Positions 8,371 through 35,066 of a DNA stretch of 64,000 nucleotides are shown one piece after another. This DNA comes from Pseudomonadota bacterium (GTDB taxonomy: Bacteria > Pseudomonadota > Gammaproteobacteria > Steroidobacterales > Steroidobacteraceae). The position numbers and the translations under genes were made by a program. Position 1 is the first letter of the stretch; each line of letters begins with the position of its first letter. The notes below the pieces were generated by a model. It was not told the origin of the DNA. It worked only from the letters and a program-made list of their open reading frames with translations, and did no database searches. The stretch is taken from assembly GCA_023433465.1 (NCBI GenBank), contig JAEZCR010000026.1:4989-68988 (forward strand), read 5' to 3'.

Positions 8371-8393
8371 CGGAGACCCCGATTCGACTGGAG

Positions 8394-9716: not shown

Positions 9717-9767
9717 ATTATTCTTGCGCCACGCCGCGCTCCCGCGCGGTGGTCTCGGAGGGCGCAG

Positions 9768-10517: not shown

Positions 10518-10564
10518 CGGAGACGTTGGTAGTTAGCACGCCAGCGTCGCCGGGAGGTTGACCG

Positions 10565-12226: not shown

Positions 12227-12230
12227 TGTC

Positions 12231-13097: not shown

Positions 13098-13123
13098 GCT
13101 GCACGTTCACCGGAGGAGCAACC

Positions 13124-16951: not shown

Positions 16952-17374
16952 TCAGTGATGGGCGGGTTCGGATATTTCCTTGAGCGCGCCGCCCGCTTTT
17001 TGCGCGACCGCCTGGCTGACGTCGCCGAGCGACACGACTCCGACGAGCTGGCGTTCGGCGTCGAGCACCGGCAACCGCCGCACCTGCTGCTCGCCCATGA
17101 CCTCGAGCGCCTCCTCGACGTTCTGGTCTTCATAGCAATACAGCACCTGCGGCGACATCACGTCGCGCGCACGCAGTCCATTGAGCGCCGATCCGTCGGC
17201 CACGGCGCGCACCACGATGTCGCGGTCGGTGACCATGCCGACCAGCTTGTCCCGGTCGGCGATCGGGACCGATCCGATGTCGTAATCGCGCATCACGCGG
17301 GCGATTTCGGACAGGCGCGCGTCGGGGGGCAGGACGGCGACCACCTTGGTCATGATTTCCTGGACTTTCATCAC
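16952..17374 (-). CDS. CBS-domain pair protein
   Basis: Two CBS repeats (VQEIMTKVVAVLPPDARL...GSVPIADRDKLVGMVTDRDI and DVMSPQVLYC...RRLPVLDAERQLVGVVSLGDV). Confidence 0.85.
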   Translation of the reverse strand: MMKVQEIMTKVVAVLPPDARLSEIARVMRDYDIGSVPIADRDKLVGMVTDRDIVVRAVADGSALNGLRARDVMSPQVLYCYEDQNVEEALEVMGEQQVRRLPVLDAERQLVGVVSLGDVSQAVAQKAGGALKEISEPAHH

Positions 17375-17511
17375 GGACTCCCGGTCGGGGCGGCGTGCTA
17401 GGTAGCGTGCGTGACCGCCCGTGGCCGCGCTGTCGGATGAATGTGGCCGGGGCTTTAGGAAATCGTGAAGTCGTGCAAAATGCGCACACCCATGCAGGGG
17501 GGTTGGAAAAA

Positions 17512-19933: not shown

Positions 19934-20809
19934 TTACTCGCCGGTTCGGGCGGCTCGGGCCGGACGCGGAATACGGTCGGTCGTAACGCCTTTCAGCGGG
20001 GGCGCGAGCGATCGCCAACTGCCCCACTGCCCGCTCAGGCTGCGCTCGAGCGGGCCGAGATGCGCATAGATGCGATCCTGCACGAGCACCACGAGCGCGT
20101 CGTAACGGTCAAGCGCGGCGTGGACCTCCGCCGCGTAGGCCGGCGAGTTGACCGGTTCGAACTGCGCGCGCTTGAAGTGCGCCATCATCGGCTCGAAATG
20201 CTCCTGGAGCGCATCGACCGGAGTCTGCGGCTCCCGATGCACGGACTTGGTCTGCGGCGCCGTCGCCATGTGCAGGATGACGTCGTCGAGATTCTTCCAG
20301 GCGCTGAGCGCCGCGCGCACGCGCGTGTATGAACCGGTGAGACCCGAGGCGCTCTCGAGGCGCACGAGATCCTCGCGCAACGCGGCGAGATTCGCGCCCG
20401 CGGAGTCGTCGTGATGATCGTGTGTGCCCTCGATGCCGTGCGTGCCGACGTTGTTCTGTTCTTGGGGCTTGTAGTTCGTGCGGACCTGGAGCTCCGCGTC
20501 CAGCAGCGACAACTCGTGCTGCTTCTGGTTCAGGATCGTCTGGTACAGGACGCGATAGGCGGCGCTCTCTTCCGCCGTCAGCTCCTGCCCGCGCTCGACC
20601 TTCTCGAACAACGCGAGATTCTCGGCGCGGATCTTCTTTCCGAGCTCCTTGTGCGGCGTGACGATGGCCGCCTTCTCGTTGAGAAGATCGACCCGGTCGG
20701 CGATCTCGTCCGCCGTCCATTTGGGCGGATCGAACGGGAAGCAGAGGAACATGAACCCGGCCACCAGGATGGCGGCGGCCCAGACCAGCAAACGACGTCC
20801 CTTTCTCAT
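19934..20809 (-). CDS. N-terminally anchored hypothetical protein
   Basis: Single TM LLVWAAAILVAGFMFLCF, then a helical domain and a His-rich patch GTHGIEGTHDHHDD. Confidence 0.45.
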   Translation of the reverse strand: MRKGRRLLVWAAAILVAGFMFLCFPFDPPKWTADEIADRVDLLNEKAAIVTPHKELGKKIRAENLALFEKVERGQELTAEESAAYRVLYQTILNQKQHELSLLDAELQVRTNYKPQEQNNVGTHGIEGTHDHHDDSAGANLAALREDLVRLESASGLTGSYTRVRAALSAWKNLDDVILHMATAPQTKSVHREPQTPVDALQEHFEPMMAHFKRAQFEPVNSPAYAAEVHAALDRYDALVVLVQDRIYAHLGPLERSLSGQWGSWRSLAPPLKGVTTDRIPRPARAARTGE

Positions 20810-20856
20810 TGTTAGGATGGTATCTATCTACCGGGCGACTAGCCTTGTCCTGGTTC

Positions 20857-21471: not shown

Positions 21472-22251
21472 TCATGGAGTGCAAGTCGTGGAAATTTGCG
21501 CTGCGGAGAGACGCGCCTCCGCTTTCTGGACCGTCTCCACCACCTTTTCTTTCTGTTCGGCCTTCGGACCGCTGCCCGCGAAAAGTCCCGTGAACTCCTC
21601 GAGCGTGCAGTATTCCCGATTGAGGTTCGACGCCAGGTATTCGACGAGTGAAGGCGCGACCGACTTGACCGAATGATGTGCGGAAAGGAGCTGATCCAGG
21701 ATTCCGTCCGGTGAACCGCCAATCTCCTCGACGAGCGCCACCGAGCGCTCGTGCTTCTCCGGCGGAATCGTCGCGGCCGCGCCGACGAGTTCCCTGATTT
21801 CCCGCGCCTTGATGTCGAAAAGCGCGAGCTGCGGCACCACCCTGATGAATGCGCAGTCGCGCGGTTGCGATGCGTCCTGGTTCGGCAGGCGCCTGCAGGC
21901 CTTGGCGGCTTTGTCACCGATCGCCAGCACCTGAGTCTCGCGTCCGCGACCGGACTTCCAGGCGGAGGCGGCCGCGATGCGGTAGAAGCCTACCGCCGTC
22001 GCAGGGTCCTTCGCCGCGATCGCGTCACCGGCCTTCTCGGCACGGATGGACAAGTCGACCATCTGCGCTTCGGAGGTCTCATTTGTGGTCATCGCCACCA
22101 GGAACTGGTCGGGAGTCGCCCGCTCCGCTTCGAGCTTGGCCGAATAGGCGCGCGCCCATTCATTGTCCATCTTGATGAGATCGACCGGCGCTACGCAGGC
22201 CGTCAGCAACAAACAGGGAATGATCCACGCAACGAGCCGTTTCGGTTTCAC
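21472..22251 (-). CDS. Lipoprotein, function unknown (last gene of the TIR/YEATS operon)
   Basis: GTG start at 22251 gives VKPKRLVAWIIPCLLLTAC with lipobox LLTAC. The start overlaps the upstream stop as GTGA (22248-22251). Confidence 0.6.
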   Translation of the reverse strand: MKPKRLVAWIIPCLLLTACVAPVDLIKMDNEWARAYSAKLEAERATPDQFLVAMTTNETSEAQMVDLSIRAEKAGDAIAAKDPATAVGFYRIAAASAWKSGRGRETQVLAIGDKAAKACRRLPNQDASQPRDCAFIRVVPQLALFDIKAREIRELVGAAATIPPEKHERSVALVEEIGGSPDGILDQLLSAHHSVKSVAPSLVEYLASNLNREYCTLEEFTGLFAGSGPKAEQKEKVVETVQKAEARLSAAQISTTCTP

Positions 22252-24077
22252 TTCGCCACTCCCGCCGCACCGACTGCGACCCTGATTGTCTGCTCGTCCA
22301 GGATCGGTACCACTCCCGATTCGATGACCTGGTGGATCATCGTGCGATACAGGAACAACCACTCACTACCGCCCATCTTCTCGCGGTTGTCGGTCACCAG
22401 CTTCCCGAGTTGCGCCGCGAGCTCCCCGACTTTCTTCCCATGGAGCGCCGCCGCCGCGGCGTTGCTCGCATGAGCGCGTATGGCGGCGATCATGGCATCG
22501 CGCAGGGTCGCGCCAAACATCACGGCACCACCTGCTCTTCCAGCCTCAGTCCACTGCGCCACCGCAACAGACAGCAAGTCCCCTAACAATGTATCGAGAA
22601 GGCTTCCCCGCTCCGCATTGCGCTCGACGCCGAGCAGACGGCCCGGATTCGCCGCCACCTCCTGTGCCGCGGCTGCAAGGATCGCCATCCAGTCGTCCTG
22701 CGACAGCAACAGGTGCTCGTCACTCGCCATCGCCGTCACGATCGCCGAGATGAGTCGATCGATCTCCGCGTTGCGGGTCGATGGCATCAATCCAGGAGTC
22801 GCCGCCACTCGTGCGACGACCACGCGCAGGATACTCTCGATGTTAGCGCGACTCCCGAGCCGTCGGAGCGCAGCCGAATCATCCTGCTTCAGCGCCTGCG
22901 CGATCGGAGCCAGTACCGGATTCAACAGCTGCGCGACGAGATTGTCCCACGGCTTGCCGGGATCGAGCAGCAAGCCACCTTCGCGCGCGAACGATTCGAC
23001 GACGCTCGTCGCGAGATCCAGGACCAGCGATCGGTCGATCGCGGGAGCGCCGGCGGCCACGCTTGCAAGATCCTTGAAGACGGCCCCAATGAGTTTGTCC
23101 GTCGAGTCCTGCGTCTTTCCAAGGAACAGATCCGGGCGCGCGGCAGCGAGTTGTGCGGTGGCCTTGAACAGTTGAACCGCACCGGCCTTCGAGACGACTT
23201 CGGTCAGCCCCAGGTCCGCGATCTTGAGCACGTAAGTGCGCGTCAGCGTCCCGAGGACATCGTCGTTGCCAAACTGTGCGCCGAAGAATGCCCCCGGATC
23301 TTCCGCCAGCGTGCGCAGCGCTTCGCCTGCCACCGGGCCCAACACGTTTTCGAGAACCCCTCGCCACTTGATCTGTTTGTCGAGCGACTCCGGCAGGCTC
23401 TCGACGATTTTCGGAAGCGTGTTCGTCACCAGCTTTTGCAGGTGTGCATCTTCGACGATGGCTTCCGGATGTTCAGCCAGCGCACCGAGCCCGGCCTTGA
23501 GGAAAATGGCCGCGACCCTTTCTCCGAACAGGTTGCGGGGACCGAGCGCGTCGGCATTGTCAGGGACCAGGTCCGCCACGCGCGATGCGACCGCCTTGAC
23601 CAGCGATTCGGCATTGCCGTCGAGACCGAACAACTTCGGGTCGGTGGCTGCGAACTCCGCCGCGACATCGACGATGACGAGGACCACGCGCGCAAACGGG
23701 CCCAGCGGCTCCTCGCCCCTGGCCCATTGATTGACCATCCAGTATCCCGCGAACTCGTCGGCGCGAGACGCAAGGTTCTTGTCGGCGATGATCTGCTGCC
23801 GCGCGTGCTCCGCCGAAAGCAGGTCGAATGCGTCCGCGAGTCGTTCCGCGCCTGGCTTGCCCGTGAACGAATCCCAGTAGCGGCTCAGATCCGGCGTGAT
23901 CTTTTCGGGATGGACCTCGAAGTATCCTCGGACCTTCGCCCGCTGTGGAAACGAAATCTTCTCGACGAGCGGCAGGAGCACCGTGCGATCGCGCGCGTAC
24001 TGCCCGATCGCCTCACTACCTGCGCGCTGCAGTCGGGCGGCGGCGCGAACCGCCATCATGATGAGGGTTGGATTCAC
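22248..24077 (-). CDS. Large (~609 aa) all-alpha, Ala/Leu-rich repeat-like protein, function unknown
   Basis: GTG start at 24077 (VNPTLIMMAVRAA...) overlaps the upstream stop as GTGA (24074-24077). No catalytic motif is seen. The first 85 codons of the ORF are Arg-rich and overlap the previous gene. Confidence 0.6.
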   Translation of the reverse strand: MNPTLIMMAVRAAARLQRAGSEAIGQYARDRTVLLPLVEKISFPQRAKVRGYFEVHPEKITPDLSRYWDSFTGKPGAERLADAFDLLSAEHARQQIIADKNLASRADEFAGYWMVNQWARGEEPLGPFARVVLVIVDVAAEFAATDPKLFGLDGNAESLVKAVASRVADLVPDNADALGPRNLFGERVAAIFLKAGLGALAEHPEAIVEDAHLQKLVTNTLPKIVESLPESLDKQIKWRGVLENVLGPVAGEALRTLAEDPGAFFGAQFGNDDVLGTLTRTYVLKIADLGLTEVVSKAGAVQLFKATAQLAAARPDLFLGKTQDSTDKLIGAVFKDLASVAAGAPAIDRSLVLDLATSVVESFAREGGLLLDPGKPWDNLVAQLLNPVLAPIAQALKQDDSAALRRLGSRANIESILRVVVARVAATPGLMPSTRNAEIDRLISAIVTAMASDEHLLLSQDDWMAILAAAAQEVAANPGRLLGVERNAERGSLLDTLLGDLLSVAVAQWTEAGRAGGAVMFGATLRDAMIAAIRAHASNAAAAALHGKKVGELAAQLGKLVTDNREKMGGSEWLFLYRTMIHQVIESGVVPILDEQTIRVAVGAAGVAK

Positions 24078-25237
24078 GGGCCGGCTCCACCTGCCGGCTG
24101 GCCGCTGGAAGAAGGGGGATGCGCAGCGGCAAAGGCGACTCGGAACGCGTCGACAGGTGTACTCGGTGGCGAACCCGCCGCGGCTCCTGCTCGCGCAGGC
24201 GTATCCGGAGTTTCCGGTTCGCGGCTGCTGGAGCGCGATTGCGCGCCACGCGTGAGACTGCGCGCGAGATCGAACCAGAACGGCGCCCCGAGACCGATCA
24301 GCAGACCCGCGAGGCCCACCGAGAGGATCCACTGCAGTCCGCGGACCGAAGCGATTCGATCGACTATCGATCCGACGTCCATCGGCAGAGCGCGCTGCTC
24401 GTCATCCACACAACCCGCATCGCGAGACCTCGGCGCCTTTCCATCCGCGGCAGCCGTTCGCGGCCGGCAGAAAGGCCAATACTCCGTGGAAATCGGCAGC
24501 CCGGTGTCGTCGATTCGCGCAAGCTCGGCGCGCACTCGCTCCGCGCCCGCATCGACGATTTCGTTTGGGGTGGAAACTTCCGGTCCCGCAGGCACCGGCG
24601 GAGCGCTCATCACGTCGGCAGCGCTCCTGGGACGAGGTGCATTCTCGGCCACCTGGGATTCGAGCGCCTGGACGACACTCTGTGTGAGCTTGTCGTCGTG
24701 CAGCAGCGACTTGAACACCCGCACCGCGTCCACGTTCACCGCGAATGCGCACACCATCGAAACGAGCAGACACCAGAAATGCGCCTGGCCCTGGAATCGC
24801 TGCGAAGCCCCCTGCCCGAAGCGATCGAACTTCTGCGCGAGGTCATTGATGATGATCTGCGTGCGTTCGGCTCCTGTCCGGGCAATCGCATCGCCGACAT
24901 GGGTATCGGCGAGGCGCTCGGCGAACTGCATCATCGACATCGATTTCAAATCGGCGGATTGAGCAATCGAGCGCAACCAGCTGGTCTTCTTCTCGTACGC
25001 CTGGTTGCGTGTGACCGATGCCAGGAACTGGTCACGGGCGGTTTCCATCGAGATCCCGCTCAGCGTCGCGGCTATCCGCGTGCTCAGCACGTCGTCGAAC
25101 AGCCGCTCCATCATGAGCCGGAACCCACGTTCGCGCGTCGAAAGAAGCTGGTAGCCCGTTTCGAGAACGATGGTCACCACCGTGGCGAGCGCCAGCATGA
25201 TCAGTGAAAACGCCAGCGCGGCTTCGAGCCAGTTCAT
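24074..25237 (-). CDS. Three-TM membrane protein (candidate YEATS-associated 3TM, YLATT-like)
   Basis: TM1 LEAALAFSLIMLALATVVTIVL, TM2 FWCLLVSMVCAFAVNV, TM3 LQWILSVGLAGLLIGLGAPFWF, and a Pro/Ser-rich C-terminal tail. It lies directly downstream of the YEATS-TIR gene. Confidence 0.6.
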   Translation of the reverse strand: MNWLEAALAFSLIMLALATVVTIVLETGYQLLSTRERGFRLMMERLFDDVLSTRIAATLSGISMETARDQFLASVTRNQAYEKKTSWLRSIAQSADLKSMSMMQFAERLADTHVGDAIARTGAERTQIIINDLAQKFDRFGQGASQRFQGQAHFWCLLVSMVCAFAVNVDAVRVFKSLLHDDKLTQSVVQALESQVAENAPRPRSAADVMSAPPVPAGPEVSTPNEIVDAGAERVRAELARIDDTGLPISTEYWPFCRPRTAAADGKAPRSRDAGCVDDEQRALPMDVGSIVDRIASVRGLQWILSVGLAGLLIGLGAPFWFDLARSLTRGAQSRSSSREPETPDTPARAGAAAGSPPSTPVDAFRVAFAAAHPPSSSGQPAGGAGP

Positions 25238-25252
25238 GAAACCCCTTGCGTG

Positions 25253-26014
25253 CTACGCCTTTGCTTTCGTCGCCTGAAGGATTTGTGCCGTCGCCGCATC
25301 GAGTTCCGCGGAGGAGCCGATATGGAGAGCGCTCCGGTTGGCGAGCGCTTCCGGCACTTCCGCCGCCGTACCGACGAGCAGAGGGATGACATTCTTGTCC
25401 TCGGCATTCATCGCGTAACCCATCTCGAGCTTCGACCACAAGCTGGGTTTTCCGGAGACGATGAAAACAGTCGCATCGGATTTCTTGATGGCCTGCTTCA
25501 CGAAGTGATCCCACTGCTGCCCAGCCTCCAAGTCGTCCGGCGACGCGATGGTGACTCCGTGACTCTTGAGCTTTTCCTTGAGCTGCCTCGCGAGATCGGA
25601 ATCCGCCGCTCCGTTCGAGACGTACACCGTAGGGTGCTGCTCTGGCAGCTCGGCATCCTTCCTGGGTGGCTTGGGTCCGGGCCTGACGACTGCGCGTCCA
25701 CTCGGCTTTTGCGGAACGATTGCGTCGGGCTCCGCCGGGTATTCGAGCTTGAGCTGGTGAACCCGCTTGAGGTTCTTGCCGGTGGCGCGAACGATCTCGA
25801 TATAGATCTTGAATTCGCCCCAACCTGCCGAATCTAGCCGAAAGCCGTTGCTTCGCTTCTTGATGACGCGAACCGGATCGCGAAATGTGGAGTGGAGCGT
25901 GTAGATCACATGTGTGATGACATCGAGCTCCTTCTTCGGCGCTTCGATCCATACGGACCAGTCCCACCAGTCCTTGGCGCTGTAAGTGGACGATTGTTTG
26001 ATCTGGATGGTCAT
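25253..26014 (-). CDS. YEATS-like domain fused to a TIR domain
   Basis: N-terminal DWWDWSVWIE...ITHVIYTLHSTFRDPVRVI...GWGEFKIYIEIV matches the eukaryotic YEATS signature. C-terminal VYVSNGAADSD...ATVFIVSGKPSLWSKLEMGYA is TIR-like. The ATG overlaps the upstream stop as ATGA (26011-26014). Confidence 0.75.
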   Translation of the reverse strand: MTIQIKQSSTYSAKDWWDWSVWIEAPKKELDVITHVIYTLHSTFRDPVRVIKKRSNGFRLDSAGWGEFKIYIEIVRATGKNLKRVHQLKLEYPAEPDAIVPQKPSGRAVVRPGPKPPRKDAELPEQHPTVYVSNGAADSDLARQLKEKLKSHGVTIASPDDLEAGQQWDHFVKQAIKKSDATVFIVSGKPSLWSKLEMGYAMNAEDKNVIPLLVGTAAEVPEALANRSALHIGSSAELDAATAQILQATKAKA

Positions 26015-26706
26015 GACCGGCCTCCATTCTTGAGCGGTATGCCTATCCACTGTGATTCCGCGTTCGACTGCCAGGGTTTCTTGCCGAGGCCTTCGATTTT
26101 CAGCTGGATCTGATCGTCGTCTTTCACGCCCTCGACCCACACGTAGACACCATCGCCTTCGGGCACCGGCGTTACCTCTGTCCAGGCAGTTCGTTCGCCC
26201 TTCGACCAAAGCCGATGCGAACACCGGGCATCGTCCCCGACGGACTTGAGCTTCCGGCCAAGCTCATCGGGGTTGATGCGCACTTTGACCTTGCGGCCCA
26301 TCCTGAGCTTCCATTCGCCAATGGTTTCCGCCAGCCGCAGAAAGGCCTCGAGCGGACTCGCCCGATCGAACGCGATGATCTCGTGGGACTGGTACATGCC
26401 GCCGACGTCCACATCGGTCTCAACCATCGCGATCGCGGGCTTTCCCTTGTTGCGTGCGTAGTTGATCTCGTCTCGCACCCAGTCGTGCGTGGTGTACTTG
26501 CCGTCCGCTTTCGCGTCCCGGCGCGTCAGCAATCCAACCACCGCATCGCACTCATCGATGCGGGCCTGGACGGCGGGAGTCAGCGCTTCGCCGCCGAGGC
26601 GCTCGCCCGTTACCGGATGCGCGAACTGGCTCGCGAACTGTCGCTCGCACCAACGCACGACGTCCCTATCTACATCACGAAACGAGAACCCCAGAAAGAT
26701 CTTCAT
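26011..26706 (-). CDS. TIR-like domain protein with a C-terminal beta-rich domain of unknown function
   Basis: MKIFLGFSFRDVDRD...CDAVVGLLTRRD...THDWVRDEINYA shows a flavodoxin-like TIR/DUF1863 pattern with a W-x-x-x-E motif. The ATG overlaps the upstream stop as ATGA (26703-26706). Confidence 0.6.
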   Translation of the reverse strand: MKIFLGFSFRDVDRDVVRWCERQFASQFAHPVTGERLGGEALTPAVQARIDECDAVVGLLTRRDAKADGKYTTHDWVRDEINYARNKGKPAIAMVETDVDVGGMYQSHEIIAFDRASPLEAFLRLAETIGEWKLRMGRKVKVRINPDELGRKLKSVGDDARCSHRLWSKGERTAWTEVTPVPEGDGVYVWVEGVKDDDQIQLKIEGLGKKPWQSNAESQWIGIPLKNGGRS

Positions 26707-28316
26707 GACTCCTCCCGCATTACGGCGAGATGCGATTTCACCCAGGTGATGATCGATTGGATCCAGATACCCTCGTTGGCGGGATAAGTACCGGGCTTTC
26801 CATTGAGTTTGGTCATGAGCTTGCCGCCCTTGTGATGCAGCGCGACGACTCCCCACATCTTGTTGAACACCGGGCTGCCGGAATTGCCTTCCTCGGTGGT
26901 CGTGCGATAGTGAACTCGACGAATCTCCGGTCGTGGAGGAGTCCCGTTGGGCGCCCCTTCGTGGTCTAGGATTTCGTTGTCCTGGAACGCGTAGGTCTGC
27001 TCCTCTCCCTGCGGGTGCCCGATGACGAAGACCTGAGGCTGAGGGGGATCGGGCTGGATCGTGGGAAGCCCTTTCGCGATGTCCAGCGGCTTCGGATCCT
27101 TCAAATCTCCTTTGAGGCGCATGAGGCAGAAATCGAGATCATCGCGTGGCGACTCACAGATGATCTCGTCGATCTCGTATGACTGATTGGGGTCGATCGC
27201 TTCGAATCTGACTTCCACGACGTCCGGGGTAGCGCCACCTTCGGCGCCCTTGGAATTCAAGACGTGGAAGTTGGTGAGAAGCAGGAATTCACCGGGATCG
27301 TCGTCCACGAAATCTTTCGAGCGCACCAGGAAACCCGTGCCGAATCGCTTTCCGAGCTTTTGCCGGATCGCCGCGACGCCAAGTCCCTGGTCAAGTCCCC
27401 TGATCCACCACTCCCGCGTCTTCGTTCCTTTTTCGATACCGAGTACCGCCTGGAACTGCGATTCGCTTGGAATCTTTTGCAGAGTCGGACCCGGATCCGC
27501 GGGAATCCTGACAGTGGCGTCCGGCAGACTCATCCTCTGGACCTTCAAGACTTCGAGCGCAGCCTGACCGCGATCGTCCTGATCGAGATTCCACACTTCC
27601 TTGAACTGGCGCAGCGTGCTGCTCAAGTGGAACTCTTTGGTCTTCGGCGATGCCGTGTACTCCCGCAGCGCCGATTCGATCGTTTCCCAGTCCTCGGTGC
27701 CGAGACTGGCTTCGGCGAGCGTCGCCAGGTACCAGTCGTCACGCTCGCCTTCCGGAACTGCCTTCAACGCGCTCAACAACTCCTTCGCCAGCTGCTGGCT
27801 ATCTATGTCCGGCGGGTAGTCGATGCCGTTGCGCTGGCAATGCGCGACACAGGCCAGCAGGTTCACGCCATGCCAGGTATTGCGCCTGGTATCCGCCTGA
27901 TATCCCGCACGGTAGGCCTCGATGGCGTTCGCCATCGAGAGCCGCGCCGCTGTCGAAGCGCGAAATCGCGAATCGAAGTACATCTGCTTGTACGACCTGC
28001 CTAACAACCCGGTGACTTCCGCCATTTCCGGGTGATCCGCGGGAATCCGCCGGCGCAGGACTTCGAGCACGTCCTGCGCGGCGGTGATTCGCCCGGTATC
28101 GATGAGCGCCTGGGCATACAGGCGTCGCGGAGTCGGCTCCACGGGCGCCACGCGGCCTATCGCTTCGGCTACGTCGATCAGCAGGCCGAAATCGCGAATG
28201 TTCCGCAGATCCGTCAGAAGCACGTTCGCCGCAGGCGGATCTTTCAGCGCTCCCGTCTTCCTGAGCTCGGCGATGAGCGCCTTTGCGTTGGCGCGGATTT
28301 CGTCGGCGCTCGCCAC
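26703..28316 (-). CDS. TPR-like (ASK1/DUF4071-like) N-terminal domain fused to a trypsin-like serine protease
   Basis: Catalytic triad candidates are H in LLTNFHVL, D in DDLDFCLMRL and S in GNSGSPVF. The N-terminal ~280 aa is a helical repeat with GLLGRSYKQMY and TWHGVNLLAC motifs. Confidence 0.75.
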   Translation of the reverse strand: MASADEIRANAKALIAELRKTGALKDPPAANVLLTDLRNIRDFGLLIDVAEAIGRVAPVEPTPRRLYAQALIDTGRITAAQDVLEVLRRRIPADHPEMAEVTGLLGRSYKQMYFDSRFRASTAARLSMANAIEAYRAGYQADTRRNTWHGVNLLACVAHCQRNGIDYPPDIDSQQLAKELLSALKAVPEGERDDWYLATLAEASLGTEDWETIESALREYTASPKTKEFHLSSTLRQFKEVWNLDQDDRGQAALEVLKVQRMSLPDATVRIPADPGPTLQKIPSESQFQAVLGIEKGTKTREWWIRGLDQGLGVAAIRQKLGKRFGTGFLVRSKDFVDDDPGEFLLLTNFHVLNSKGAEGGATPDVVEVRFEAIDPNQSYEIDEIICESPRDDLDFCLMRLKGDLKDPKPLDIAKGLPTIQPDPPQPQVFVIGHPQGEEQTYAFQDNEILDHEGAPNGTPPRPEIRRVHYRTTTEEGNSGSPVFNKMWGVVALHHKGGKLMTKLNGKPGTYPANEGIWIQSIITWVKSHLAVMREES

Positions 28317-28319
28317 GTG

Positions 28320-29255
28320 TCAGAGCTCGAGCATGGACCGCAACGCCTGGCGGAATTTCGGCTGCTTGAGATACTTCGTGGCGGAATGACGCCACGCGCC
28401 GTCGTTCTCTATCTGGATGTCCTCGATGCGCTTGACGCTCGAGAAGCGATAGTCGTTGGCGAGTTGGGGATCGAGACCGCAGACCGGATCGAGCCGGTCG
28501 AATAGATTGACCCATCGCTTTGCGACCCGTTCGTTCGGAAAGCCTTCGAGCCGCGACCATCCCGGCTGAAGCTTGTCCTGCACTTCGTCGAGCCCCAATG
28601 GACTGCCGATCGTGATGAGACCATCGACCTTGTTGCAGTCGCCGACTCTCTTGAGGCAGTCGTAGGCGATCACCGTTCCCATGCTGTGCGAAACCACGAT
28701 ATGAGGACCGTTCGACGCAGGCTTGTTCACCTTTTCGACGAAACGTTTGCGAATGGTTTGCTGGATGCGCACGGGCTGGCGACCCGGCGGCGCGAAGCTC
28801 ACGTCGAACAGGTAGTGGTGAACATCACGCAGAAACGCGTTCATGATCGGCTTCTTGATGAACCAGGGCAGCGGGATTCGTTCGAAAGAGCCTCCCGCCG
28901 CGGTCGGTGCCGCCGGCGGAGCCGAAGCGATCTCGTCGTCGTCGCGCGAGGTGAGTTTTTCGCGCAGCCCTTCGATGAACGCGGCTTCTTCCTTGTTGGC
29001 CGGCGTGGGGATGTCCTTGGCTCCGGCCGAGTCGGCGGCGGCATCCCTGTTGGCGTCCGTGCTCTCGAAATTGCTGACGTCGGTGATGGGCTCGCCGTAC
29101 AGGAGATCCGCCCAGTACACCATCGACGTGGTTACACCGTCGGTCTCGAGCGAGAGCGGCTCAGCCGCCGCCTCGAGCGCCTCGCACCAGATTCGGAGCA
29201 ATGTCTTCTCTTCGGGCTTGTTGGCGATGCCGTGTATGAAAGTGACGTGTGCCAT
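28320..29255 (-). CDS. Alpha/beta-hydrolase (lipase/esterase-like)
   Basis: Oxyanion-hole VTFIHGI and nucleophile elbow VVSHSMGTV. No signal peptide. It ends 3 nt before the next start. Confidence 0.7.
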   Translation of the reverse strand: MAHVTFIHGIANKPEEKTLLRIWCEALEAAAEPLSLETDGVTTSMVYWADLLYGEPITDVSNFESTDANRDAAADSAGAKDIPTPANKEEAAFIEGLREKLTSRDDDEIASAPPAAPTAAGGSFERIPLPWFIKKPIMNAFLRDVHHYLFDVSFAPPGRQPVRIQQTIRKRFVEKVNKPASNGPHIVVSHSMGTVIAYDCLKRVGDCNKVDGLITIGSPLGLDEVQDKLQPGWSRLEGFPNERVAKRWVNLFDRLDPVCGLDPQLANDYRFSSVKRIEDIQIENDGAWRHSATKYLKQPKFRQALRSMLEL

Positions 29256-29289
29256 GGGTACTCCCTGATTCCTCGTGTACTGTGCCCGA

Positions 29290-29904
29290 TCAAAGGTCGA
29301 AGGCAGGATCTTCGCCGATGTCCGGGATCTTCATGGTCGGTTCCTTCGCCGAAGGCTCGAGACCCCGCATCGATTCGAAGCCCGGTAGCCCCGCTTCCTT
29401 GCGAAGGGCATTGAGGCGATTGAGCCACCCCTTCCTGAACACGGCGAGCTTGGGATTCTTCTCTATGAGCCGCCCATAGAAGGCTTCACGCGCATCGCAA
29501 TATCGAATGACCACTTCGCCGTGATCGCACTCGGCGACTGCCTTTGCCGTGCCGGACCCGAAATCACCATCGACCGCGCAGTTCGCGGCGCCCTGCAGGA
29601 AACGCACGGCTCGGCCCACACCCATGTTCACCGCGGTATCGAACTGAACGAGGTCCAGCGGGTCGTTGAGCAGCTCACAACGGGCCGCGAGCCAGTAGCC
29701 GGACTCGTAGATCGATTGAACTTCATCCTCGGAGATGAGCTTGACGTCCTGCGGCCCGGCACCCTGCCGTGCCCGCCACTGGTCGTAGACTTTCTGGGTG
29801 ACTCCCCTGTTGGTGCGGCCGCCGGGGTCGTCGGGGTGATCGACGAACCCGCCCTCCCAACGCAATACGAATTTGAGCGCAGAAGTCAGCTGGGTGGATG
29901 GCAT
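29290..29904 (-). CDS. GH108-family N-acetylmuramidase with a PG_binding_3-type peptidoglycan-binding domain
   Basis: LRWEGGFVDHPDDPGGRTNRGVTQ is the GH108 catalytic motif. It is followed by DGDFGSGTAKAV (PG-binding). No signal peptide or holin is nearby. It is the first gene of the operon. Confidence 0.8.
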   Translation of the reverse strand: MPSTQLTSALKFVLRWEGGFVDHPDDPGGRTNRGVTQKVYDQWRARQGAGPQDVKLISEDEVQSIYESGYWLAARCELLNDPLDLVQFDTAVNMGVGRAVRFLQGAANCAVDGDFGSGTAKAVAECDHGEVVIRYCDAREAFYGRLIEKNPKLAVFRKGWLNRLNALRKEAGLPGFESMRGLEPSAKEPTMKIPDIGEDPAFDL

Positions 29905-30297
29905 GGGTCCGTCCGGACGCGCCGCGTCGCGAGTAGCTAGCTATTGTTCTTGTGATGCCCGCACCATAGTACAGGTGCGATCCGGGCCGCAATCCCGATC
30001 GGCGCGCCTCGTTCACCGAGTGCCAAATAGTACCGATGGGTGTACTGTCCGCGCGTCACCGGCGGACGACGCGATCTAGTTAGTTTCTGCGACCATTGGT
30101 GCGACGCGCAATTGTTCCATCGGGATGCCTGGAATGCCCCGTCTTCATGACCCATTCGAGTACGGTGTTCGTGCGGGCTGCGGTCACGCGATCCGGCGGC
30201 TGCCTATCTGGAAGGAATTCAACGACTTCACCGCGCCGACAATGGCCGCGGATGGTCGCGGGAAGTCGTTCGTTGCCCTAACAAGGAGCAACCGGCG

Positions 30298-33117
30298 ATG
30301 ACGAATCCGCGGAAACGCAGCTTCAAGGCATTCATCTCCTATAGCCACGCCGCGGATGGCAAGCTCGCCCCCGCGGTGCAACGTGCGCTGCATCGCATCG
30401 CCAAGCCGTGGTACCGCATCCGTACCATGCGTGTGTTTCGCGACCAGACGAATCTGGCCGCCAGCCCCGGGCTGTGGTCGTCGATCGAATCGGCGCTGGA
30501 ACAAGCCGAGTACTTCCTCTACATGGCCTCGCCGCAGGCCGCGCAATCTCCATGGGTGCAGAAGGAAATCGAATGGTGGTTGAGCAACCGCTCGCCGCAG
30601 ACCTTCCTCATCCTGCTCACGGACGGCCAGATGGCGTGGAACAGCGAAGCGGCGGATTGGGACTGGAGCAACACGACGGCATGGCCTTCCCAGGCGGCCC
30701 GCGCATTCCGCGAAGAGCCGTTGTACACGGATCTTCGCTGGGCTCGAAAGGAGGAGCAGCTCTCGGCACGGCACTCGCAGTTTCGAGCGGCGATGCTCGA
30801 TCTCGCTGCCACGCTGCTGGGCCGTCCGAAGGATGAGCTCGACGGCGAGGATGTGCGTCAGTACCGTCGGACCCGACGCATCGCCGGGCTCGCGATCGTG
30901 ACACTCGCCGCGTTGTTCATTGCCGCCGCGGTCGCGGCCTACCAGGCTACCCAGCAGAGCAGATTGGCGACCTCGCGTGCGCTGGGCGCGCGATCCGAAG
31001 CTCTGTTGCCGACGAATCCGGAACTCGCCCTGCTGCTGGCGCGCGAGGCCGTCAGCGTACGAGCGGATGAGCAAGCCGTGTTCGCATTGCGCCAGGCGTT
31101 CGTGCGCAATCCCCTGCGCGTGTTTCACCAGGCCCCGTCCGGCACGAACCTCGCCGCGGCCTTTGCCAGTGCCGATGCGGTCGTGGTTGCGGATCCCGAC
31201 GGGGGCGCGAGCATCTGGAGTGTCGCCTCGGGAACCCGCATCGCGGGTGTGGCGGCCGAGCCCGGCGACCGGGCCAGGGTGAGTCATTCGAACGACGGCA
31301 CGATGGTCGTCATCGGCACCGAGGAACCGGAATTCGCCGTCCATGACGCGAAGTCTTGGCAGGTCATCCGGCAGCTTCCCGGAAGCCGCGCGCGATTCAC
31401 TCGCGATGGCAAGACTCTCGTCGCCGAAGACAATGGGGCAATCAGGCAGTGGGACGTGCCATCGCTGAGCGAGCGCGTCTCCCCGATCAAACTACCGAGC
31501 GGGCATTCCTTGTCGGCACCCGCTCCGGATGGTCGCGTGTTCGTGCTGGCGAGTGACGGCGACCCGCTCGAGTTCGTGGTTGTCGATGCGCGCAGCGCGC
31601 GGACCGTCGCGCGGATTCCCGCGATACCGATGGTGGAAGGAGATCCATTGAGCCCCGACGGTACGCTGCTGCTCGTCCAGGATGAGGACCTCGAGCTTTG
31701 GGATACGCGGACCGGCAAGCGGGTGCGGTCGCTGCAACAGCCGGAGTTCGGCGGCATTGGCTGGACGACGTTCGCCGCCTTCACACCCGATGGCGCGAAG
31801 GTCTTCACCGGCAATCGCAACGGCGAGATCCACGCCTGGAAGGTGGCGACGGGTGAATACCTGAGGAATTGGACTCTGCATCGCAACGATATCCGCGCGA
31901 TCGAATTCAGTCGTGACGGGCAGACCATGCTCACCGGCGGAGCGGACGGAACGGTGTGCCTCTGGGAGGTGCCGGGCGACGTCCTGGCGGTTTCGAGCGA
32001 CCGCTGTCTCGTGACCTTGGGAGGCAGAGGCGACGACGCCTGGGACTTCTCCTTTGCCCCGGACGGTCGCCACTTTCTGACGACTCATATGGATGGCACG
32101 GTTCGCGTGTGGGATCGAGAGACCTGGCACCCCAGCGTGACCGTTCCCGGCACGACCATGGCCGCCAGTGAGGACGGCCGGTTCGTCTTGAGTTCCGCGG
32201 ACGATCAACCGCTGCGACTCTGGGATGGAGAGTCCGGCGCGCTGCAAGCAACCCTCGAAATGACGGGAGAGTCCATCGAAGCAATGGCGGTGAGTGGCGC
32301 TGCATCGCTGTTTGCCGTCGCGCGGAAGGAAGGAACCGTTGGGCTTTGGCGCATGCCGTCCGGCGAGCTCGCACTGCAACTGCCCGCAAGCTCCGGCAGC
32401 ACCCAGGCGCTGGCGTTCAATCGCGCCGGAACTGAACTGGTCACCGCGGGAGCGGATGGAAAGATCCGCTTCTGGAGCACGGGTGCGCCGCAGTTATTGC
32501 GCGAGTGGGCCGCGTCTGGTGGAAGTATCGCGAAGCTTCTCGTCGAGAATGATGACAGGCATATCGTTCTGACCTTCGACCCCGGAACGGTGCAAGTGCG
32601 CGACATCGAGAACGGCGCGGTGATCTCGGAGACGAAAGTCGTGGCCGAGGGACGTACCGCGGGAGTCTTGACGCCCGGTGCGAATCGGATGTTGCTGGCC
32701 GTGGTCGACGATCGGTTTCCTGAATTGTGGAATCTCGGGACCGGCAAGAGAGTGTTGACCCTTCCCGGCCACACTGACGAGGTGTGGTCGACGGCGCTGA
32801 GCTCCGATGGCCGGTTCTTGCTGACCGGCAGTGGTTTCTTCATGTCCCGAGGTGAAGCACCCGAAGATGGCAACGCGATACGAATCTGGGACGCACAGAG
32901 CGGCCGCGAAATTCTCAGTTACCGGGCGCCCGGATGGGTGGTGAACCAGGTGGCCTTTGCCGGCGACGACACGACTATCTTCTCGGCCAGCCGGGACGGG
33001 ATGGTGCGACGCTTCCGCTGCGAAGTCTGCCTTCCTCTGGAAGAGCTGCAGTCGCTCATATCCTCGCGCGTGACGCGCGAGCTGACGGCGGGCGAGCGCG
33101 CTCAATATGTTCCGTGA
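30298..33117 (+). CDS. TIR - single TM - WD40 (double beta-propeller) protein
   Basis: AAGGAG RBS. TIR motifs FKAFISYSHAADG and SPWVQKEIEWW. The positive patch RQYRRTRR is followed by TM IAGLAIVTLAALFIAAAVAAY. There are then ~700 aa of WD repeats (GADGTVCLWEV, MDGTVRVWD, GADGKIRFWS, HTDEVWSTALSSDGRFLLTGS). Confidence 0.85.
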   Translation: MTNPRKRSFKAFISYSHAADGKLAPAVQRALHRIAKPWYRIRTMRVFRDQTNLAASPGLWSSIESALEQAEYFLYMASPQAAQSPWVQKEIEWWLSNRSPQTFLILLTDGQMAWNSEAADWDWSNTTAWPSQAARAFREEPLYTDLRWARKEEQLSARHSQFRAAMLDLAATLLGRPKDELDGEDVRQYRRTRRIAGLAIVTLAALFIAAAVAAYQATQQSRLATSRALGARSEALLPTNPELALLLAREAVSVRADEQAVFALRQAFVRNPLRVFHQAPSGTNLAAAFASADAVVVADPDGGASIWSVASGTRIAGVAAEPGDRARVSHSNDGTMVVIGTEEPEFAVHDAKSWQVIRQLPGSRARFTRDGKTLVAEDNGAIRQWDVPSLSERVSPIKLPSGHSLSAPAPDGRVFVLASDGDPLEFVVVDARSARTVARIPAIPMVEGDPLSPDGTLLLVQDEDLELWDTRTGKRVRSLQQPEFGGIGWTTFAAFTPDGAKVFTGNRNGEIHAWKVATGEYLRNWTLHRNDIRAIEFSRDGQTMLTGGADGTVCLWEVPGDVLAVSSDRCLVTLGGRGDDAWDFSFAPDGRHFLTTHMDGTVRVWDRETWHPSVTVPGTTMAASEDGRFVLSSADDQPLRLWDGESGALQATLEMTGESIEAMAVSGAASLFAVARKEGTVGLWRMPSGELALQLPASSGSTQALAFNRAGTELVTAGADGKIRFWSTGAPQLLREWAASGGSIAKLLVENDDRHIVLTFDPGTVQVRDIENGAVISETKVVAEGRTAGVLTPGANRMLLAVVDDRFPELWNLGTGKRVLTLPGHTDEVWSTALSSDGRFLLTGSGFFMSRGEAPEDGNAIRIWDAQSGREILSYRAPGWVVNQVAFAGDDTTIFSASRDGMVRRFRCEVCLPLEELQSLISSRVTRELTAGERAQYVP

Positions 33118-33314: not shown

Positions 33315-34682
33315 TTGGCCATGGCAAAGAGCATTTTCGTCAGCCACATCTCGGAGGAACGCGAGATCGCGGCGTTCATCAAGCGCGCGATGACCGACGC
33401 CTTCGATGCTGTCGCGGTTTTCACGTCCAGCGATGTCGGCAGTGTCGGCGCCGGTGACGATTGGCTGAATGCGGTCAAGAAGGCGCTGGCGCGCTCCGCC
33501 GCGATCATCGTGTTGTGCAGCCAGGAGTCCATCAACCGGCCATGGGTGCAGTTCGAACTGGGAGCCGCGTGGATGTTGAAGAAGCGGATCATCCCGATTT
33601 GTCATTCCGGCCTCAGAACCGAGCACCTGTCGATTCCGCTGTCCTTGCTCGAGGCCGTGGAACTGGGCACGGAATCAGGATTGCGAAAACTCTACGCCGG
33701 CGTCGTCAAAGCGCTGAGGGTGAAAGCGGAGCGAGTCCCCGCTGACATGCAGGAATTGTTGCGCGAAGCCCGGGCCCTGCAACGGGATCTCGGCGTGCAC
33801 CAGTTCGAGATGTACATCGACATCCTGATCCCGCGTGACGAACTGGGCGGCAGGATTCCGGGAACGGCGCGAATCGAATCCGACAACAGGTCGATGGAGC
33901 TGTTCGGTTTTCGGAACTCAAAGGGCTGCACCTGGAGCGACATCGAGCGCGCCGCCGACGTCAGCGCCGATACGCGCTGGCTGGACCAGCTGCACGAATG
34001 CGTTCGCAGGGCCAGTCGGAACGAACATTTCGAGGCCGTGCAGGCTATCTACCACACCGGGCGTGGCCGATCCTTCCAGCCGCAGCTGGCGAAGATGCAG
34101 TTGCAGTCGGACGGCACGTGCCGTTTCCACGTGCATCTCGTGGAGACGGTGGTCGCGCCGCTCGTGGAGGTGAACAACGAGTTCGGCCTGCTTGCGACGC
34201 TGTTGCGGTTGGGGATGCGCTTTCGCTACGAGGTGATCGAGAAATACGCCCGGTTCAACAGGGACGCCAGGGCGAGTTCGTCCGACCCGCTGATGATCGA
34301 GCGATACGTCCGCGAAGCACTGCGAGCCGCGATTCTCGTCATCGAGCGCGATGCGGCTTCGCGAGGCTCGGCGATCCTCATGGATCCGGACGCCCTGCTG
34401 GCGCTGTTCGATCGGGATTCGGAGCGCGAGCAGATAGAAAGTCACCAAGCCCTCTGGCAGCGCGATCGGGCATTGTTGTTCAAGAACGATCCGCCGCCGA
34501 CATTGCCGCAGCTGGATGCGATCATCGCCAACCTGCGCGGCATGAACTGGCGCTTCATGAGCCTTGCCACGCAGCGCTGCAATGAGATCGTCAGCACGCG
34601 CTGGTCTGGTGATTCGGCTACGCCGGTCGCCGGGCGGCGGGTCCAACTCGCGCCGGGCAGGACGAACATGCTGGACGGTTGA
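33315..34682 (+). CDS. TIR domain protein with a ~320-aa C-terminal domain of unknown function
   Basis: SIFVSHISEEREIA...AAIIVLCSQESINRPWVQFELGAAW is a TIR pattern with W-x-x-x-E. The remainder is helical with no motif I recognise. Confidence 0.7.
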   Translation: MAMAKSIFVSHISEEREIAAFIKRAMTDAFDAVAVFTSSDVGSVGAGDDWLNAVKKALARSAAIIVLCSQESINRPWVQFELGAAWMLKKRIIPICHSGLRTEHLSIPLSLLEAVELGTESGLRKLYAGVVKALRVKAERVPADMQELLREARALQRDLGVHQFEMYIDILIPRDELGGRIPGTARIESDNRSMELFGFRNSKGCTWSDIERAADVSADTRWLDQLHECVRRASRNEHFEAVQAIYHTGRGRSFQPQLAKMQLQSDGTCRFHVHLVETVVAPLVEVNNEFGLLATLLRLGMRFRYEVIEKYARFNRDARASSSDPLMIERYVREALRAAILVIERDAASRGSAILMDPDALLALFDRDSEREQIESHQALWQRDRALLFKNDPPPTLPQLDAIIANLRGMNWRFMSLATQRCNEIVSTRWSGDSATPVAGRRVQLAPGRTNMLDG

Positions 34683-34765
34683 GCCCTGGAGGAGAACCGC
34701 GCCAAGAGCTTGTCGCGGCGGGAGAAGATGGCGCGGCCGGAGAGATTACTCACCCGCCATGCGGG
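34683..34765 (+). pseudogene. Remnant of an integrase 3' end fused to a decayed tRNA-Arg 3' half (fossil att junction)
   Basis: An ungapped alignment of 34701-34747 with 49151-49197 gives 37/47 identities. The translation ENRAKSLSR compares with the integrase C-terminus ENRDKMLSR. It is followed by TGGCGCGGCCGGAGAGATT (18/19 to the tRNA 3' end) and a degenerate T-arm-like ACTCACCCGCCA. Confidence 0.65.
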
Positions 34766-34962: not shown

Positions 34963-35020
34963 AATTGAAATGAAAAAGGGGCCGAACCGAAGACGGCTCG
35001 ACCCCTTTTTCATTTCAATT
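34963..35020. terminator. Long hairpin, bidirectional intrinsic terminator (probable native tRNA-Arg terminator)
   Basis: Perfect 19-nt arms AATTGAAATGAAAAAGGGG / CCCCTTTTTCATTTCAATT enclose a further imperfect stem. T-tracts are present on both strands. It abuts the 45-bp att repeat. Confidence 0.8.
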
Positions 35021-35021
35021 A

Positions 35022-35066
35022 TGGCGCGCCCGGAGAGATTCGAACTCCCGACCACCTGGTTCGTAG
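35022..35066. repeat. attR: 45-bp direct repeat identical to the 3' end of tRNA-Arg
   Basis: TGGCGCGCCCGGAGAGATTCGAACTCCCGACCACCTGGTTCGTAG is identical to 49179-49223. Confidence 0.9.

Follow-up and report, generated by a model that had tools for sequence, protein, structure and literature searches.

We describe a tightly packed run of eight genes, g1 to g8, in a 64,000-nucleotide stretch (hereafter the window) of contig JAEZCR010000026.1, from the Steroidobacteraceae assembly GCA_023433465.1. We read this operon as a composite, Thoeris-like TIR-signalling system of abortive infection, put together from three recurrent modules (g1-g3, g4-g5 and g6-g8) and equipped with a TPR-S protease and an envelope-lysis arm. 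On the evidence set out below, we give this reading roughly an even chance of being right. Its signalling half draws on the domain architecture, on the association of TPR-S with TIR and prokaryotic YEATS (pYEATS) domains in related loci, and on the precedent of Thoeris types VIII, IV and VII.

The open reading frame (ORF) listing places the eight genes consecutively on the minus strand from 29904 down to 21472 (Table 1; product lengths were taken after picking internal starts consistent with the overlaps). Independent public gene calls on a 100%-identical metagenome/NCBI contig give the same eight products. A sequence-only reading that preceded this analysis had proposed these genes, a domain or feature for each product, and junctions from g1 to g8 of 34 nt, 3 nt, ATGA, ATGA, 15 nt, GTGA and GTGA. 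The junctions were reproduced exactly from the sequence (spacings of -4 to +34 nt), and every domain call was recovered by Pfam, hydrophobic-segment and lipobox checks. GGAG/GGGAG Shine-Dalgarno-like motifs stand 5' of most starts. A promoter scan of the operon found zero promoter-like sites, and a terminator scan found terminator-like sites at the g8-distal end only. Promoters presumably lie in the divergent intergenic region upstream of g1; since a match to the sigma-70 consensus is absent there, this role is presumed rather than read off. The tight packing backs the earlier proposal of one translational unit of conflict-system genes, and g1 to g8 are probably co-translated. G+C content at third codon positions (GC3) is 0.72-0.78 in the operon genes compared with about 0.85 in neighbouring core genes (17356-19479 and 19934-20827). 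This contrast points to horizontal acquisition, even if the operon is not part of the att-bounded element described below; given a GC3 lower than that of the flanking core genes, the region may be an older acquisition.

The putative signal generators are encoded by g4 and g5. Pfam reports a weak TIR_2 match for g4. Its N-terminal half is nevertheless a genuine TIR, because it aligns with the g5 TIR at 97.2% probability in a profile-profile comparison (hhalign), because W76 and E80 do not vary among 65 sequences, and because the AlphaFold2 (AF2) model (predicted local distance difference test, pLDDT, 90.9) matches SARM1, plant and SPARTA TIRs in Foldseek. The same search also returned immunoglobulin-like domains, and the C-terminal third of the model is a beta-sandwich. 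That this beta-sandwich might be a cryptic pYEATS domain was considered and rejected (hhalign probability 0.4%).

The g5 product fuses a YEATS-type domain to a TIR, with Pfam matches to pYEATS (1.8e-18), YEATS (7e-15) and TIR_2 (1.2e-14). Across g5 and g3, TIR_2 (PF13676), TPR-S (PF20308) and pYEATS (PF20305) all exceed the Pfam cut-offs. W193 and E197 of the g5 TIR are invariant. Searched against the Protein Data Bank (PDB), the pYEATS family profile (alignment A1) matches Yaf9, Taf14, YEATS2 and GAS41 at 1e-11 to 1e-7, and its LHxTF and GWGEF motifs align with Yaf9. These two motifs line the acyl-lysine pocket in YEATS structures. By profile, pYEATS is a true YEATS homologue with its pocket motifs kept. 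It resembles the eukaryotic YEATS readers (Yaf9, Taf14, AF9, GAS41) in sequence (E = 1e-11) and in these aligned motifs, and differs from them in being bacterial, TIR-fused or solo, and without a chromatin context. Proteins with the pYEATS-TIR architecture are rare (10 matches among 5.8 billion clusters). The best match in GTDB species representatives, at 58% identity, comes from a Steroidobacteraceae metagenome-assembled genome (MAG), and a Joint Genome Institute record of a homologue is titled 'pYEATS domain-containing protein involved in immunity'.

The candidate receiver of a TIR signal is g3, in which a TPR-S domain (Pfam 2.6e-15; MAP3K_TRAF_bd 1.3e-9) is joined to a trypsin-like protease (Trypsin_2, 1.4e-19). 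The protease triad H351, D395 and S481 is invariant in seven homologues. Full-length homologues occur in L026, L070, L073, L074, L076, L079 and L125 (loci of the comparison set described below are cited by number). PHROGs contain two weak matches to g3 (E = 5e-4 and 4e-3), both to families without an assigned function. PADLOC matches g3 to retron type XI (RT-protease), with the match limited to profile positions 345-490, the protease part; no reverse transcriptase (RT) domain was found with Pfam or PADLOC, and the retron identity was rejected. The catalytic residues of the g4 and g5 TIRs, the g3 protease and g1, and the candidate ones of g2, are all conserved, in favour of catalytic competence.

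The domains themselves have a history. Burroughs and Aravind reportedly defined pYEATS and TPR-S in 2020 for predicted TIR-signalling conflict systems, in which the TPR scaffold was predicted to sense NAD+-derived TIR signals; the class is reported to be purely computational. A TIR, a TPR-S-fused effector and pYEATS, the elements reported for that class, occur together in the neighbourhood of the window operon and recur elsewhere. A TPR-bearing effector has since been validated: type VIII Thoeris, described in 2025, pairs a ThsB TIR with ThsI, a fusion of a cytidine monophosphate (CMP) hydrolase with TPR, and uses canonical cyclic ADP-ribose (cADPR) as messenger. The ThsI TPR domain is proposed to perceive cADPR, and its role in TIR signalling is said there to have been predicted by Aravind and colleagues (bioRxiv 10.64898/2025.12.03.692087). 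Thoeris now comprises types I-XI with many effectors, among them a protease in type IV, where a TIR and a caspase-like protease communicate through N7-cADPR, and SLATT in type VII (bioRxiv 10.64898/2025.12.03.692087).

We found the same association of domains in a comparison set of about 150 related loci. Species-representative genomes were scanned with a pYEATS-TIR profile, window proteins were mapped by tblastn and iterated hidden Markov models, and a metagenome scan with a g6 profile returned 80 loci. A g4 homologue lies immediately upstream of a pYEATS gene in 31 distinct loci from many phyla, with hosts that include Nitrospira, Nitrosomonas, Gallionella, Burkholderiales, Chitinophagaceae, Acidobacteriota, Desulfobacteraceae, Polyangiaceae, Ilumatobacter and others. 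About half of the pYEATS proteins in these pairs are solo domains of ~100 amino acids, and the remainder are TIR-fused. A TPR-S protein is encoded within 10 kb of 20 of the 31 g4-pYEATS pairs and of 2 of 31 pYEATS genes without g4 (Fisher test, p = 2.4e-6). A TIR of the type found in n1, a gene just beyond the operon, shows the same tendency over the same distance (13/31 versus 1/31; p = 4.6e-4). In the g4-pYEATS loci, TPR-S stands alone or is fused to Patatin, CHAT, LCAT plus CHAT, TIR, alpha/beta hydrolase or trypsin, which has the appearance of a sensor-effector pattern. The pYEATS genes of L035-L063 look different: they include tandem pYEATS-pYEATS proteins of ~215-240 amino acids (e.g., L038 9914-10567) and caspase-pYEATS fusions of 387-559 amino acids (e.g., L037 8588-10237), without a g4 partner and with TPR-S almost never nearby. 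For these last two reasons, their architecture suggests distinct pYEATS-based systems.

These associations bear on what the TIRs do. They might be effectors that deplete nicotinamide adenine dinucleotide (NAD+) once the pYEATS, beta-sandwich or WD40 domains have sensed a trigger, with TPR-S serving as a scaffold for hydrolases and no diffusible messenger involved; we judge this quite unlikely. Minimal loci of g4 and pYEATS-TIR without a separate effector would fit such a scheme. So would the generic role of TPR domains as interaction scaffolds, TPR-S being homologous to the TRAF-binding TPR of ASK1 (as the MAP3K_TRAF_bd match indicates), and the fact that many bacterial TIRs are NADases, cases that the 2025 screen discarded (bioRxiv 10.64898/2025.12.03.692087). 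However, about half of the pairs combine a solo pYEATS with a single TIR and yet are associated with TPR-S effectors, and TPR-S is joined to many alternative killing domains, as ligand sensors are in Thoeris and in cyclic-oligonucleotide-based anti-phage signalling systems (CBASS). Furthermore, type VIII Thoeris, with its TPR-bearing effector, is activated by added cADPR (bioRxiv 10.64898/2025.12.03.692087).

Beyond the g4-pYEATS pair, the related loci indicate how the whole operon may have been assembled. One Steroidobacteraceae MAG (locus-tag prefix VMF52) carries, on different contigs, the two halves that are merged in the window operon: GH108 - TPR-S - g4 - pYEATS-TIR (L001) and g6-g7-g8 followed by a pYEATS/TPR-S/Patatin gene (L068). 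The latter fusion, a single protein of ~990 amino acids, lies downstream of g6-g7-g8 in L068, L069, L070, L072, L076, L079 and L117. In L070 it is followed by homologues of g1 (68% identity), g2 (61%) and g3 (48%), so that g6-g7-g8, the pYEATS fusion and g1-g2-g3 stand in an order unlike that of the window; L076 and L079 share this arrangement. The closest relative of the window operon, L073, reads g1-g2-g3-(143-amino acid ORF)-g6-g7-g8, with identities of 86, 84, 74, 75, 75 and 65% for g1, g2, g3, g6, g7 and g8. In L074, g6 directly follows g3. The Desulfobacteraceae loci L019 and L129 read g6-g7-g8 - TPR-S - Patatin - g4 - pYEATS; L064 reads SLATT_2 - g4 - pYEATS-TIR - TPR-S; and a further locus reads Patatin - g4 - pYEATS-TIR - ... 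- caspase - LCAT-CHAT, with TPR-S upstream.

Judged from these arrangements, the window operon is a composite of the three recurrent modules, with g1-g3 and g6-g8 as a backbone and g4-g5 in a variable slot. The 143-amino acid ORF of L073 (8020-8452), which sits in the slot of window g4 plus g5, looks PGDYG-like by eye. A 129-amino acid ORF between the Patatin gene and g4 of L019 (8123-8512) has a weak PF14083 match (E = 1e-3). Such small PGDYG-like ORFs may be another interchangeable sensor or adaptor. The recurrence of the genes together in other genomes, on which the earlier proposal of a system depended, is thus seen in the related loci. The operon is modular and not monolithic: g4-g5 are gone from L073, and each module also occurs alone.

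The two outer modules supply the candidate lysis arm. The g1 product is an endolysin-type N-acetylmuramidase (Glyco_hydro_108, 1.9e-28; PG_binding_3, 4.3e-11) whose W16-E17-G18-G19 segment, including the GH108 glutamate, is invariant in seven homologues. Homologues at 61-86% identity occur in L001, L069, L070, L073, L076 and L079. Neither a hydrophobic N-terminus nor a signal peptide was found in g1. For g2, the Pfam matches (Hydrolase_4, LCAT, Abhydrolase_6) are weak and all under cut-off; S191, H290 and two candidate aspartates (D253, D256) form a candidate triad that is invariant in four homologues, and a g2 homologue follows g1 in L069, L070, L073 and L076. Peptidoglycan-attacking effectors have previously been predicted in other conflict systems (PMC7159879).

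The g6 product is predicted to span the inner membrane three times (residues 7-25, 154-172 and 304-322). Its family counts 1055 representative clusters at E<=1e-3; conservation picks out a GLGGPFWF motif and, in a predicted periplasmic loop, two cysteines. Searches of Pfam, PDB, PADLOC, NCBIfam and PHROGs returned no match to g6. A MotA/ExbB- or ZorA-like identity was rejected, the transmembrane (TM) spacing being different and Pfam and PDB support absent. The 34 homologues of g7 are all unannotated; no TM segments were found in g7, and its AF2 model is all-helical (pLDDT 69; predicted template modelling score, pTM, 0.37). In g8, the lipobox Cys19 and Cys119, Cys133 and Cys257 are invariant among 15 homologues, and Cys215 is kept in at least 90% of them, a pattern that fits a disulfide-bonded periplasmic protein. 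Counting only loci with space for the next gene, at least 34 of 52 have g7 after g6, and 32 of 43 have g8 after g7. By these measures, g6-g7-g8 are a widespread, uncharacterised triad.

The company kept by the g6 family is what points to a possible role in envelope lysis. Its neighbours include non-homologous peptidoglycan hydrolases (Amidase_2 with PG_binding_1 and a PG_binding_1 protein, none of which has a signal peptide, and PG_binding_1 with Peptidase_M15_4), as well as lipases and other hydrolases (Patatin, a Tle1-like phospholipase domain, a DUF900 hydrolase, TPR-S-Patatin and Metallophos). Non-homologous peptidoglycan hydrolases and lipases stand in for one another beside this family. 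In L071 (7545-13033), a Metallophos phosphoesterase comes after a distant g6-g7-g8 set (29% identity), which also has a 1267-amino acid SIR2_2 protein and a Lipase_3 gene as neighbours. In L125 (6647-8620), a hemocyanin/tyrosinase-like protein is encoded directly upstream in the g6 locus.

A muramidase next to a membrane protein and a lipoprotein recalls phage lysis, and the operon could be a degenerate prophage lysis cassette that happens to adjoin TIR genes. We consider this highly improbable. The g1 product does match endolysin phrog_315 strongly (2e-46) and the NCBIfam model 'holin-associated N-acetylmuramidase' weakly. Yet g1 is the only one of the eight proteins to match a PHROG of known function (g6-g8 have no PHROG match), a g4 profile found no relative in 2.9 million viral contigs, phage structural genes are absent nearby, the operon lies outside the integrase-bounded element, and the same gene set is kept in many non-prophage contexts.

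A second alternative takes the operon out of phage defence altogether. It would serve envelope antagonism or remodelling, for instance with secreted lipase and muramidase toxins and with g8 and g6 as periplasmic or membrane immunity proteins, or as a trans-envelope apparatus that needs a peptidoglycan hydrolase of its own. This we regard as very unlikely. The Tle1-like domain, which is of the type VI secretion system (T6SS) kind, and the Patatin, Amidase_2 and Peptidase_M15_4 neighbours of the g6 family are compatible with antagonism, as is the nature of g8, since many immunity proteins against T6SS lipases or amidases are periplasmic lipoproteins. On the other hand, neither the operon nor the related loci examined were seen to encode a secretion-system marker or a toxin-delivery domain, and export signals are missing from g1 and from the amidases. 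The partners (TIR, TPR-S, caspase/CHAT, SLATT, STAND) are typical of intracellular immune signalling, and the surroundings are a defence neighbourhood.

For the composite Thoeris-like system, the analysis shows the structure of the genes, the identity of their domains, the conservation of catalytic residues, the co-occurrence of the modules and the position next to other defence genes. From these we infer a messenger and its identity, a receptor role for TPR-S, an order of events, an export role for g6-g8 and an anti-phage phenotype, as follows. A phage cue would be sensed by a non-catalytic domain of g4 (the beta-sandwich) or g5 (pYEATS), probably aided by n1. The TIRs of g4, g5 and probably n1 would then convert NAD+ to an ADP-ribose-derived messenger. 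Binding of this messenger to the TPR-S domain of g3 would switch on the trypsin-like protease, which may kill directly, license the envelope-lysis arm, or both. That arm would consist of g1, a muramidase without a signal peptide, and the lipase-like g2; a complex of the inner-membrane g6, the cytoplasmic all-alpha g7 and the periplasmic lipoprotein g8 would let both reach the envelope. The infected cell would lyse ahead of phage maturation. A more specific joint proposal is that g6-g7-g8 are a widespread, hitherto unrecognised holin- or translocon-like lysis machine for signal-peptide-less peptidoglycan hydrolases and phospholipases, fired by the TIR-to-TPR-S signal, and that pYEATS is a phage sensor reading an acyl-lysine-like mark. 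We hold the two parts together to be doubtful.

Several observations weigh against the composite system. The lysis half, including an export or holin-like role for g6-g8, is its weakest step and draws on gene neighbourhood only; the g6 neighbours were picked by adjacency, with no background model. No PDB match was found for the g7 family by sequence profile, and none at E below 1 with the g7 model in Foldseek; as that model is of low confidence, we draw no fold inference for g7. The g8 family likewise matched no PDB sequence profile and has no structural analogue. On the signalling side, comparison of the window TIRs with published Thoeris ThsB domains gave weak, non-specific matches, so that the messenger is not predictable from them. 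The g5 and n1 domains are weakly closest to type III Thoeris TIR1, and no specific similarity to type VIII ThsB TIRs was found. In two loci (L065 and L066), g4 and pYEATS-TIR form a two-gene unit with no TPR-S or effector within 10 kb, and their TIRs may themselves be NAD+-depleting effectors. L068 has no TIR within 8 kb. The absence of g4-g5 from L073, where divergent TIR genes lie upstream, means that the TIR pair is dispensable for the backbone. The L065 pair is also unusual in its position (8119-13707), in a non-island setting between two CobN/Mg-chelatase-like genes and beside a MoxR/VWA-like gene.

Some of these same loci would suit a different account, in which three autonomous modules were stacked by island accretion, each sensing and killing alone, and their tight spacing reflects compaction. 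The g4-g5 pair alone in L065 and L066, the set without it in L073, g6-g7-g8 accompanied by just an amidase or a Metallophos gene in L071, L084 and L087, and the halves on different contigs of the Steroidobacteraceae MAG all agree with accretion. We nonetheless find it unlikely. Co-occurrence is repeated in varied orders across distant lineages (L019/L129, L070, L076, L079, L073), and TPR-S is strongly enriched around g4-pYEATS pairs. Within the window, the module boundary between g3 and g4 is bridged by a 4-nt overlap of start and stop codons, a gap of just 15 nt separates g5 from g6, and neither g1 nor g2 carries its own sensor. Thus, we disfavour both stacked modules and a prophage cassette because the modules re-associate in varied orders, because pYEATS, TPR-S and Patatin are joined in one protein beside g6-g8, and because phage and secretion markers are lacking.

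Compared with named systems, the operon is closest in logic to Thoeris. It has one general element, TIRs with a catalytic glutamate (g4 W76/E80, g5 W193/E197). A candidate for another, a separate effector with a ligand-sensing domain, is g3 (TPR-S with Trypsin_2), for which type VIII is the sole precedent. Like type VIII, it pairs a TIR generator with a TPR-bearing effector; unlike type VIII, that effector is a trypsin-like protease instead of the CMP hydrolase of ThsI, and the window encodes between two and four TIR proteins that carry additional sensor domains, along with six further genes. With type IV it shares the logic of a TIR messenger that activates a cell-killing protease, and related loci carry caspase or CHAT effectors; g3 itself is a TPR-S-fused trypsin-like serine protease and not a caspase-like Peptidase_C14. 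Several TIR genes in one system recall type III, whose effector is SLOG, and the SLATT_2 gene of L064 recalls type VII (TIR plus SLATT), whereas Pfam found neither SLOG nor SLATT in the window operon. The type I effector ThsA combines SIR2 or TM with SLOG; Pfam and PADLOC gave no SIR2 or SLOG match in the ten proteins g1-g8, n1 and n2. Assignment to types I, IV and VIII therefore fails because the effector catalytic domains differ. In its signal-peptide-less muramidase, multi-TM protein and lipoprotein, the operon is also like a phage holin-endolysin-spanin cassette; g1 supplies an endolysin, but g6, g7 and g8 resemble no known holin or spanin, and the system is chromosomal, not at a prophage location.

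The sequence-only reading had been unable to match the operon to any named defence system. At system level this stands: PADLOC, NCBIfam and PHROGs returned no assignment for the operon proteins beyond generic TIR and protease matches and the g1 endolysin match, and as a system the g4 partner, the GH108 and lipase genes and the g6-g7-g8 triad have no Pfam, NCBIfam or PADLOC model. It needs amending in that g5 and g3 carry the Pfam domains pYEATS and TPR-S. The statement that Thoeris-defining partners are missing is right for SIR2 and SLOG, which define type I only, and too narrow now that Thoeris extends to types I-XI. That CBASS and retron partners are absent was borne out, with no CD-NTase (SMODS) among g1-g8 and no RT domain; a SMODS and HNH-SAVED pair of genes exists separately (Table 1). 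In the literature text searched, the names pYEATS and TPR-S, singly or combined with TIR or phage, gave matches to the surname 'Yeats' only. The words 'YEATS' and 'trypsin' are absent from the text and supplement text of the 2025 TIR screen (bioRxiv 10.64898/2025.12.03.692087).

Table 1. Genes and other features of the window discussed in the text. Coordinates are positions in the window.
Feature	Positions	Strand	Description	Basis or remark
g1	29290..29904	-	GH108 N-acetylmuramidase + PG_binding_3, 204 aa, endolysin-type	Pfam, PHROGs
g2	28320..29255	-	lipase-like alpha/beta hydrolase, 311 aa	weak Pfam, HSMG nucleophile elbow
g3	26703..28316	-	TPR-S sensor domain (putative) + trypsin-like serine protease, 537 aa	Pfam
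g4	26011..26706	-	TIR domain + C-terminal beta-sandwich, 231 aa	hhalign, AF2, Foldseek
g5	25253..26014	-	prokaryotic YEATS + TIR, 253 aa	Pfam, PDB profile search
g6	24074..25237	-	3-TM inner-membrane protein, 387 aa	hydrophobic segments
g7	22248..24077	-	all-alpha soluble protein, 609 aa, GTG start	AF2; directly downstream of g6
g8	21472..22251	-	periplasmic lipoprotein, 259 aa, GTG start	lipobox LLTAC
Divergent intergenic region, g1 to TIR-WD40 gene (n1)	29905..30297		393 bp	presumed promoters
n1	30298..33117	+	TIR-TM-WD40, 939 aa	PADLOC, Pfam, TM at 195-213
n2	33315..34682	+	TIR + unmatched C-terminal domain, 455 aa	TIR_2 8e-13, ThsB_TIR 6e-6
CoiA-like gene	35301-36161			in integrative element
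CBASS CD-NTase (SMODS)	36880-37785			in integrative element
HNH-SAVED effector (CBASS pair)	37788-38987			in integrative element
Type ISP restriction-modification (R-M) enzyme	40272-45182		1636 aa	in integrative element
Fic gene	45208-46776			in integrative element
MobC/NikA-like gene	46953-47504			in integrative element
Tyrosine integrase	47936-49171		411 aa	Phage_integrase domain, looks intact
tRNA-Arg(ACG)	49179-49255			19 kb from operon

The operon sits among other defence genes, with CBASS, a Type ISP R-M enzyme and two further TIR genes within 20 kb. Those two TIR genes, n1 and n2, lie next to it. The n1 product has a ThsB-like TIR at its N-terminus (PADLOC) and WD40 propellers (Pfam); its homologues adjoin g4/pYEATS pairs in L009, L031 and L033, with WD40-region matches in L013-L015. 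From this recurrence, n1 probably belongs to the system, as an added sensor and signal generator. ThsB-like matches were also found for n2 in PADLOC, and the related loci yielded no homologue of its C-terminal domain; n2 perhaps belongs to the system.

The 3' end of the tRNA-Arg gene occurs twice as a perfect direct repeat of 45 bp (35022-35066 and 49179-49223), and the two copies bound a 14.2-kb integrative element at 35.0-49.2 kb that coincides with a dip in GC content. Because the att copy at 35022-35066 bounds this element, the operon is outside it, ~5 kb beyond the distal att copy with n1 and n2 in between. The sequence-only reading had put the operon beside a tRNA-Arg integration hotspot with a fossil integrase, and both points are imprecise: the tRNA is 19 kb away and its element is separate, and the integrase appears intact. 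A tblastn search of the window with the island integrase found no second or fossil copy, and a further att site was not found. The 19 nt at 34729-34747, right after n2, match the beginning of the att/tRNA repeat at 95% identity. They may be a scar left when an earlier integration delivered the TIR region; no matching scar was found near 21.4 kb. Adjoining the att copy on its left, at 34975-35021, is a long near-perfect palindrome (GAAATGAAAAAGGGGCCGA...TCGACCCCTTTTTCATTTC) that has the look of a terminator or a recombination-site hairpin.

The general logic of a TIR activating an effector is already experimentally established for other Thoeris types. The newest elements here appear to be the g4-pYEATS sensor pair, the TPR-S-trypsin effector and, above all, the unannotated g6-g7-g8 with its link to signal-peptide-less wall hydrolases and lipases. 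If our reading is correct, the operon would represent a new Thoeris configuration, in which a TPR-sensor protease is combined with multiple sensor-fused TIRs. It would also offer an experimental handle on the ligands of bacterial YEATS domains, with an evolutionary link to eukaryotic chromatin readers. The role proposed for g6-g7-g8 would make them part of a regulated self-lysis effector that ties nucleotide immune signalling to the destruction of wall and membrane. Should the joint proposal of a lysis machine and a pYEATS sensor hold as well, a YEATS reader would for the first time have a function in immunity, and a lysis cassette would have been domesticated to serve Thoeris as an effector arm. 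The swaps among relatives, of g4-g5 for a PGDYG-like ORF or a pYEATS-TPR-S-Patatin protein and of GH108 for Amidase_2 or Peptidase_M15, offer a natural system for sensor and effector exchange in defence operons.

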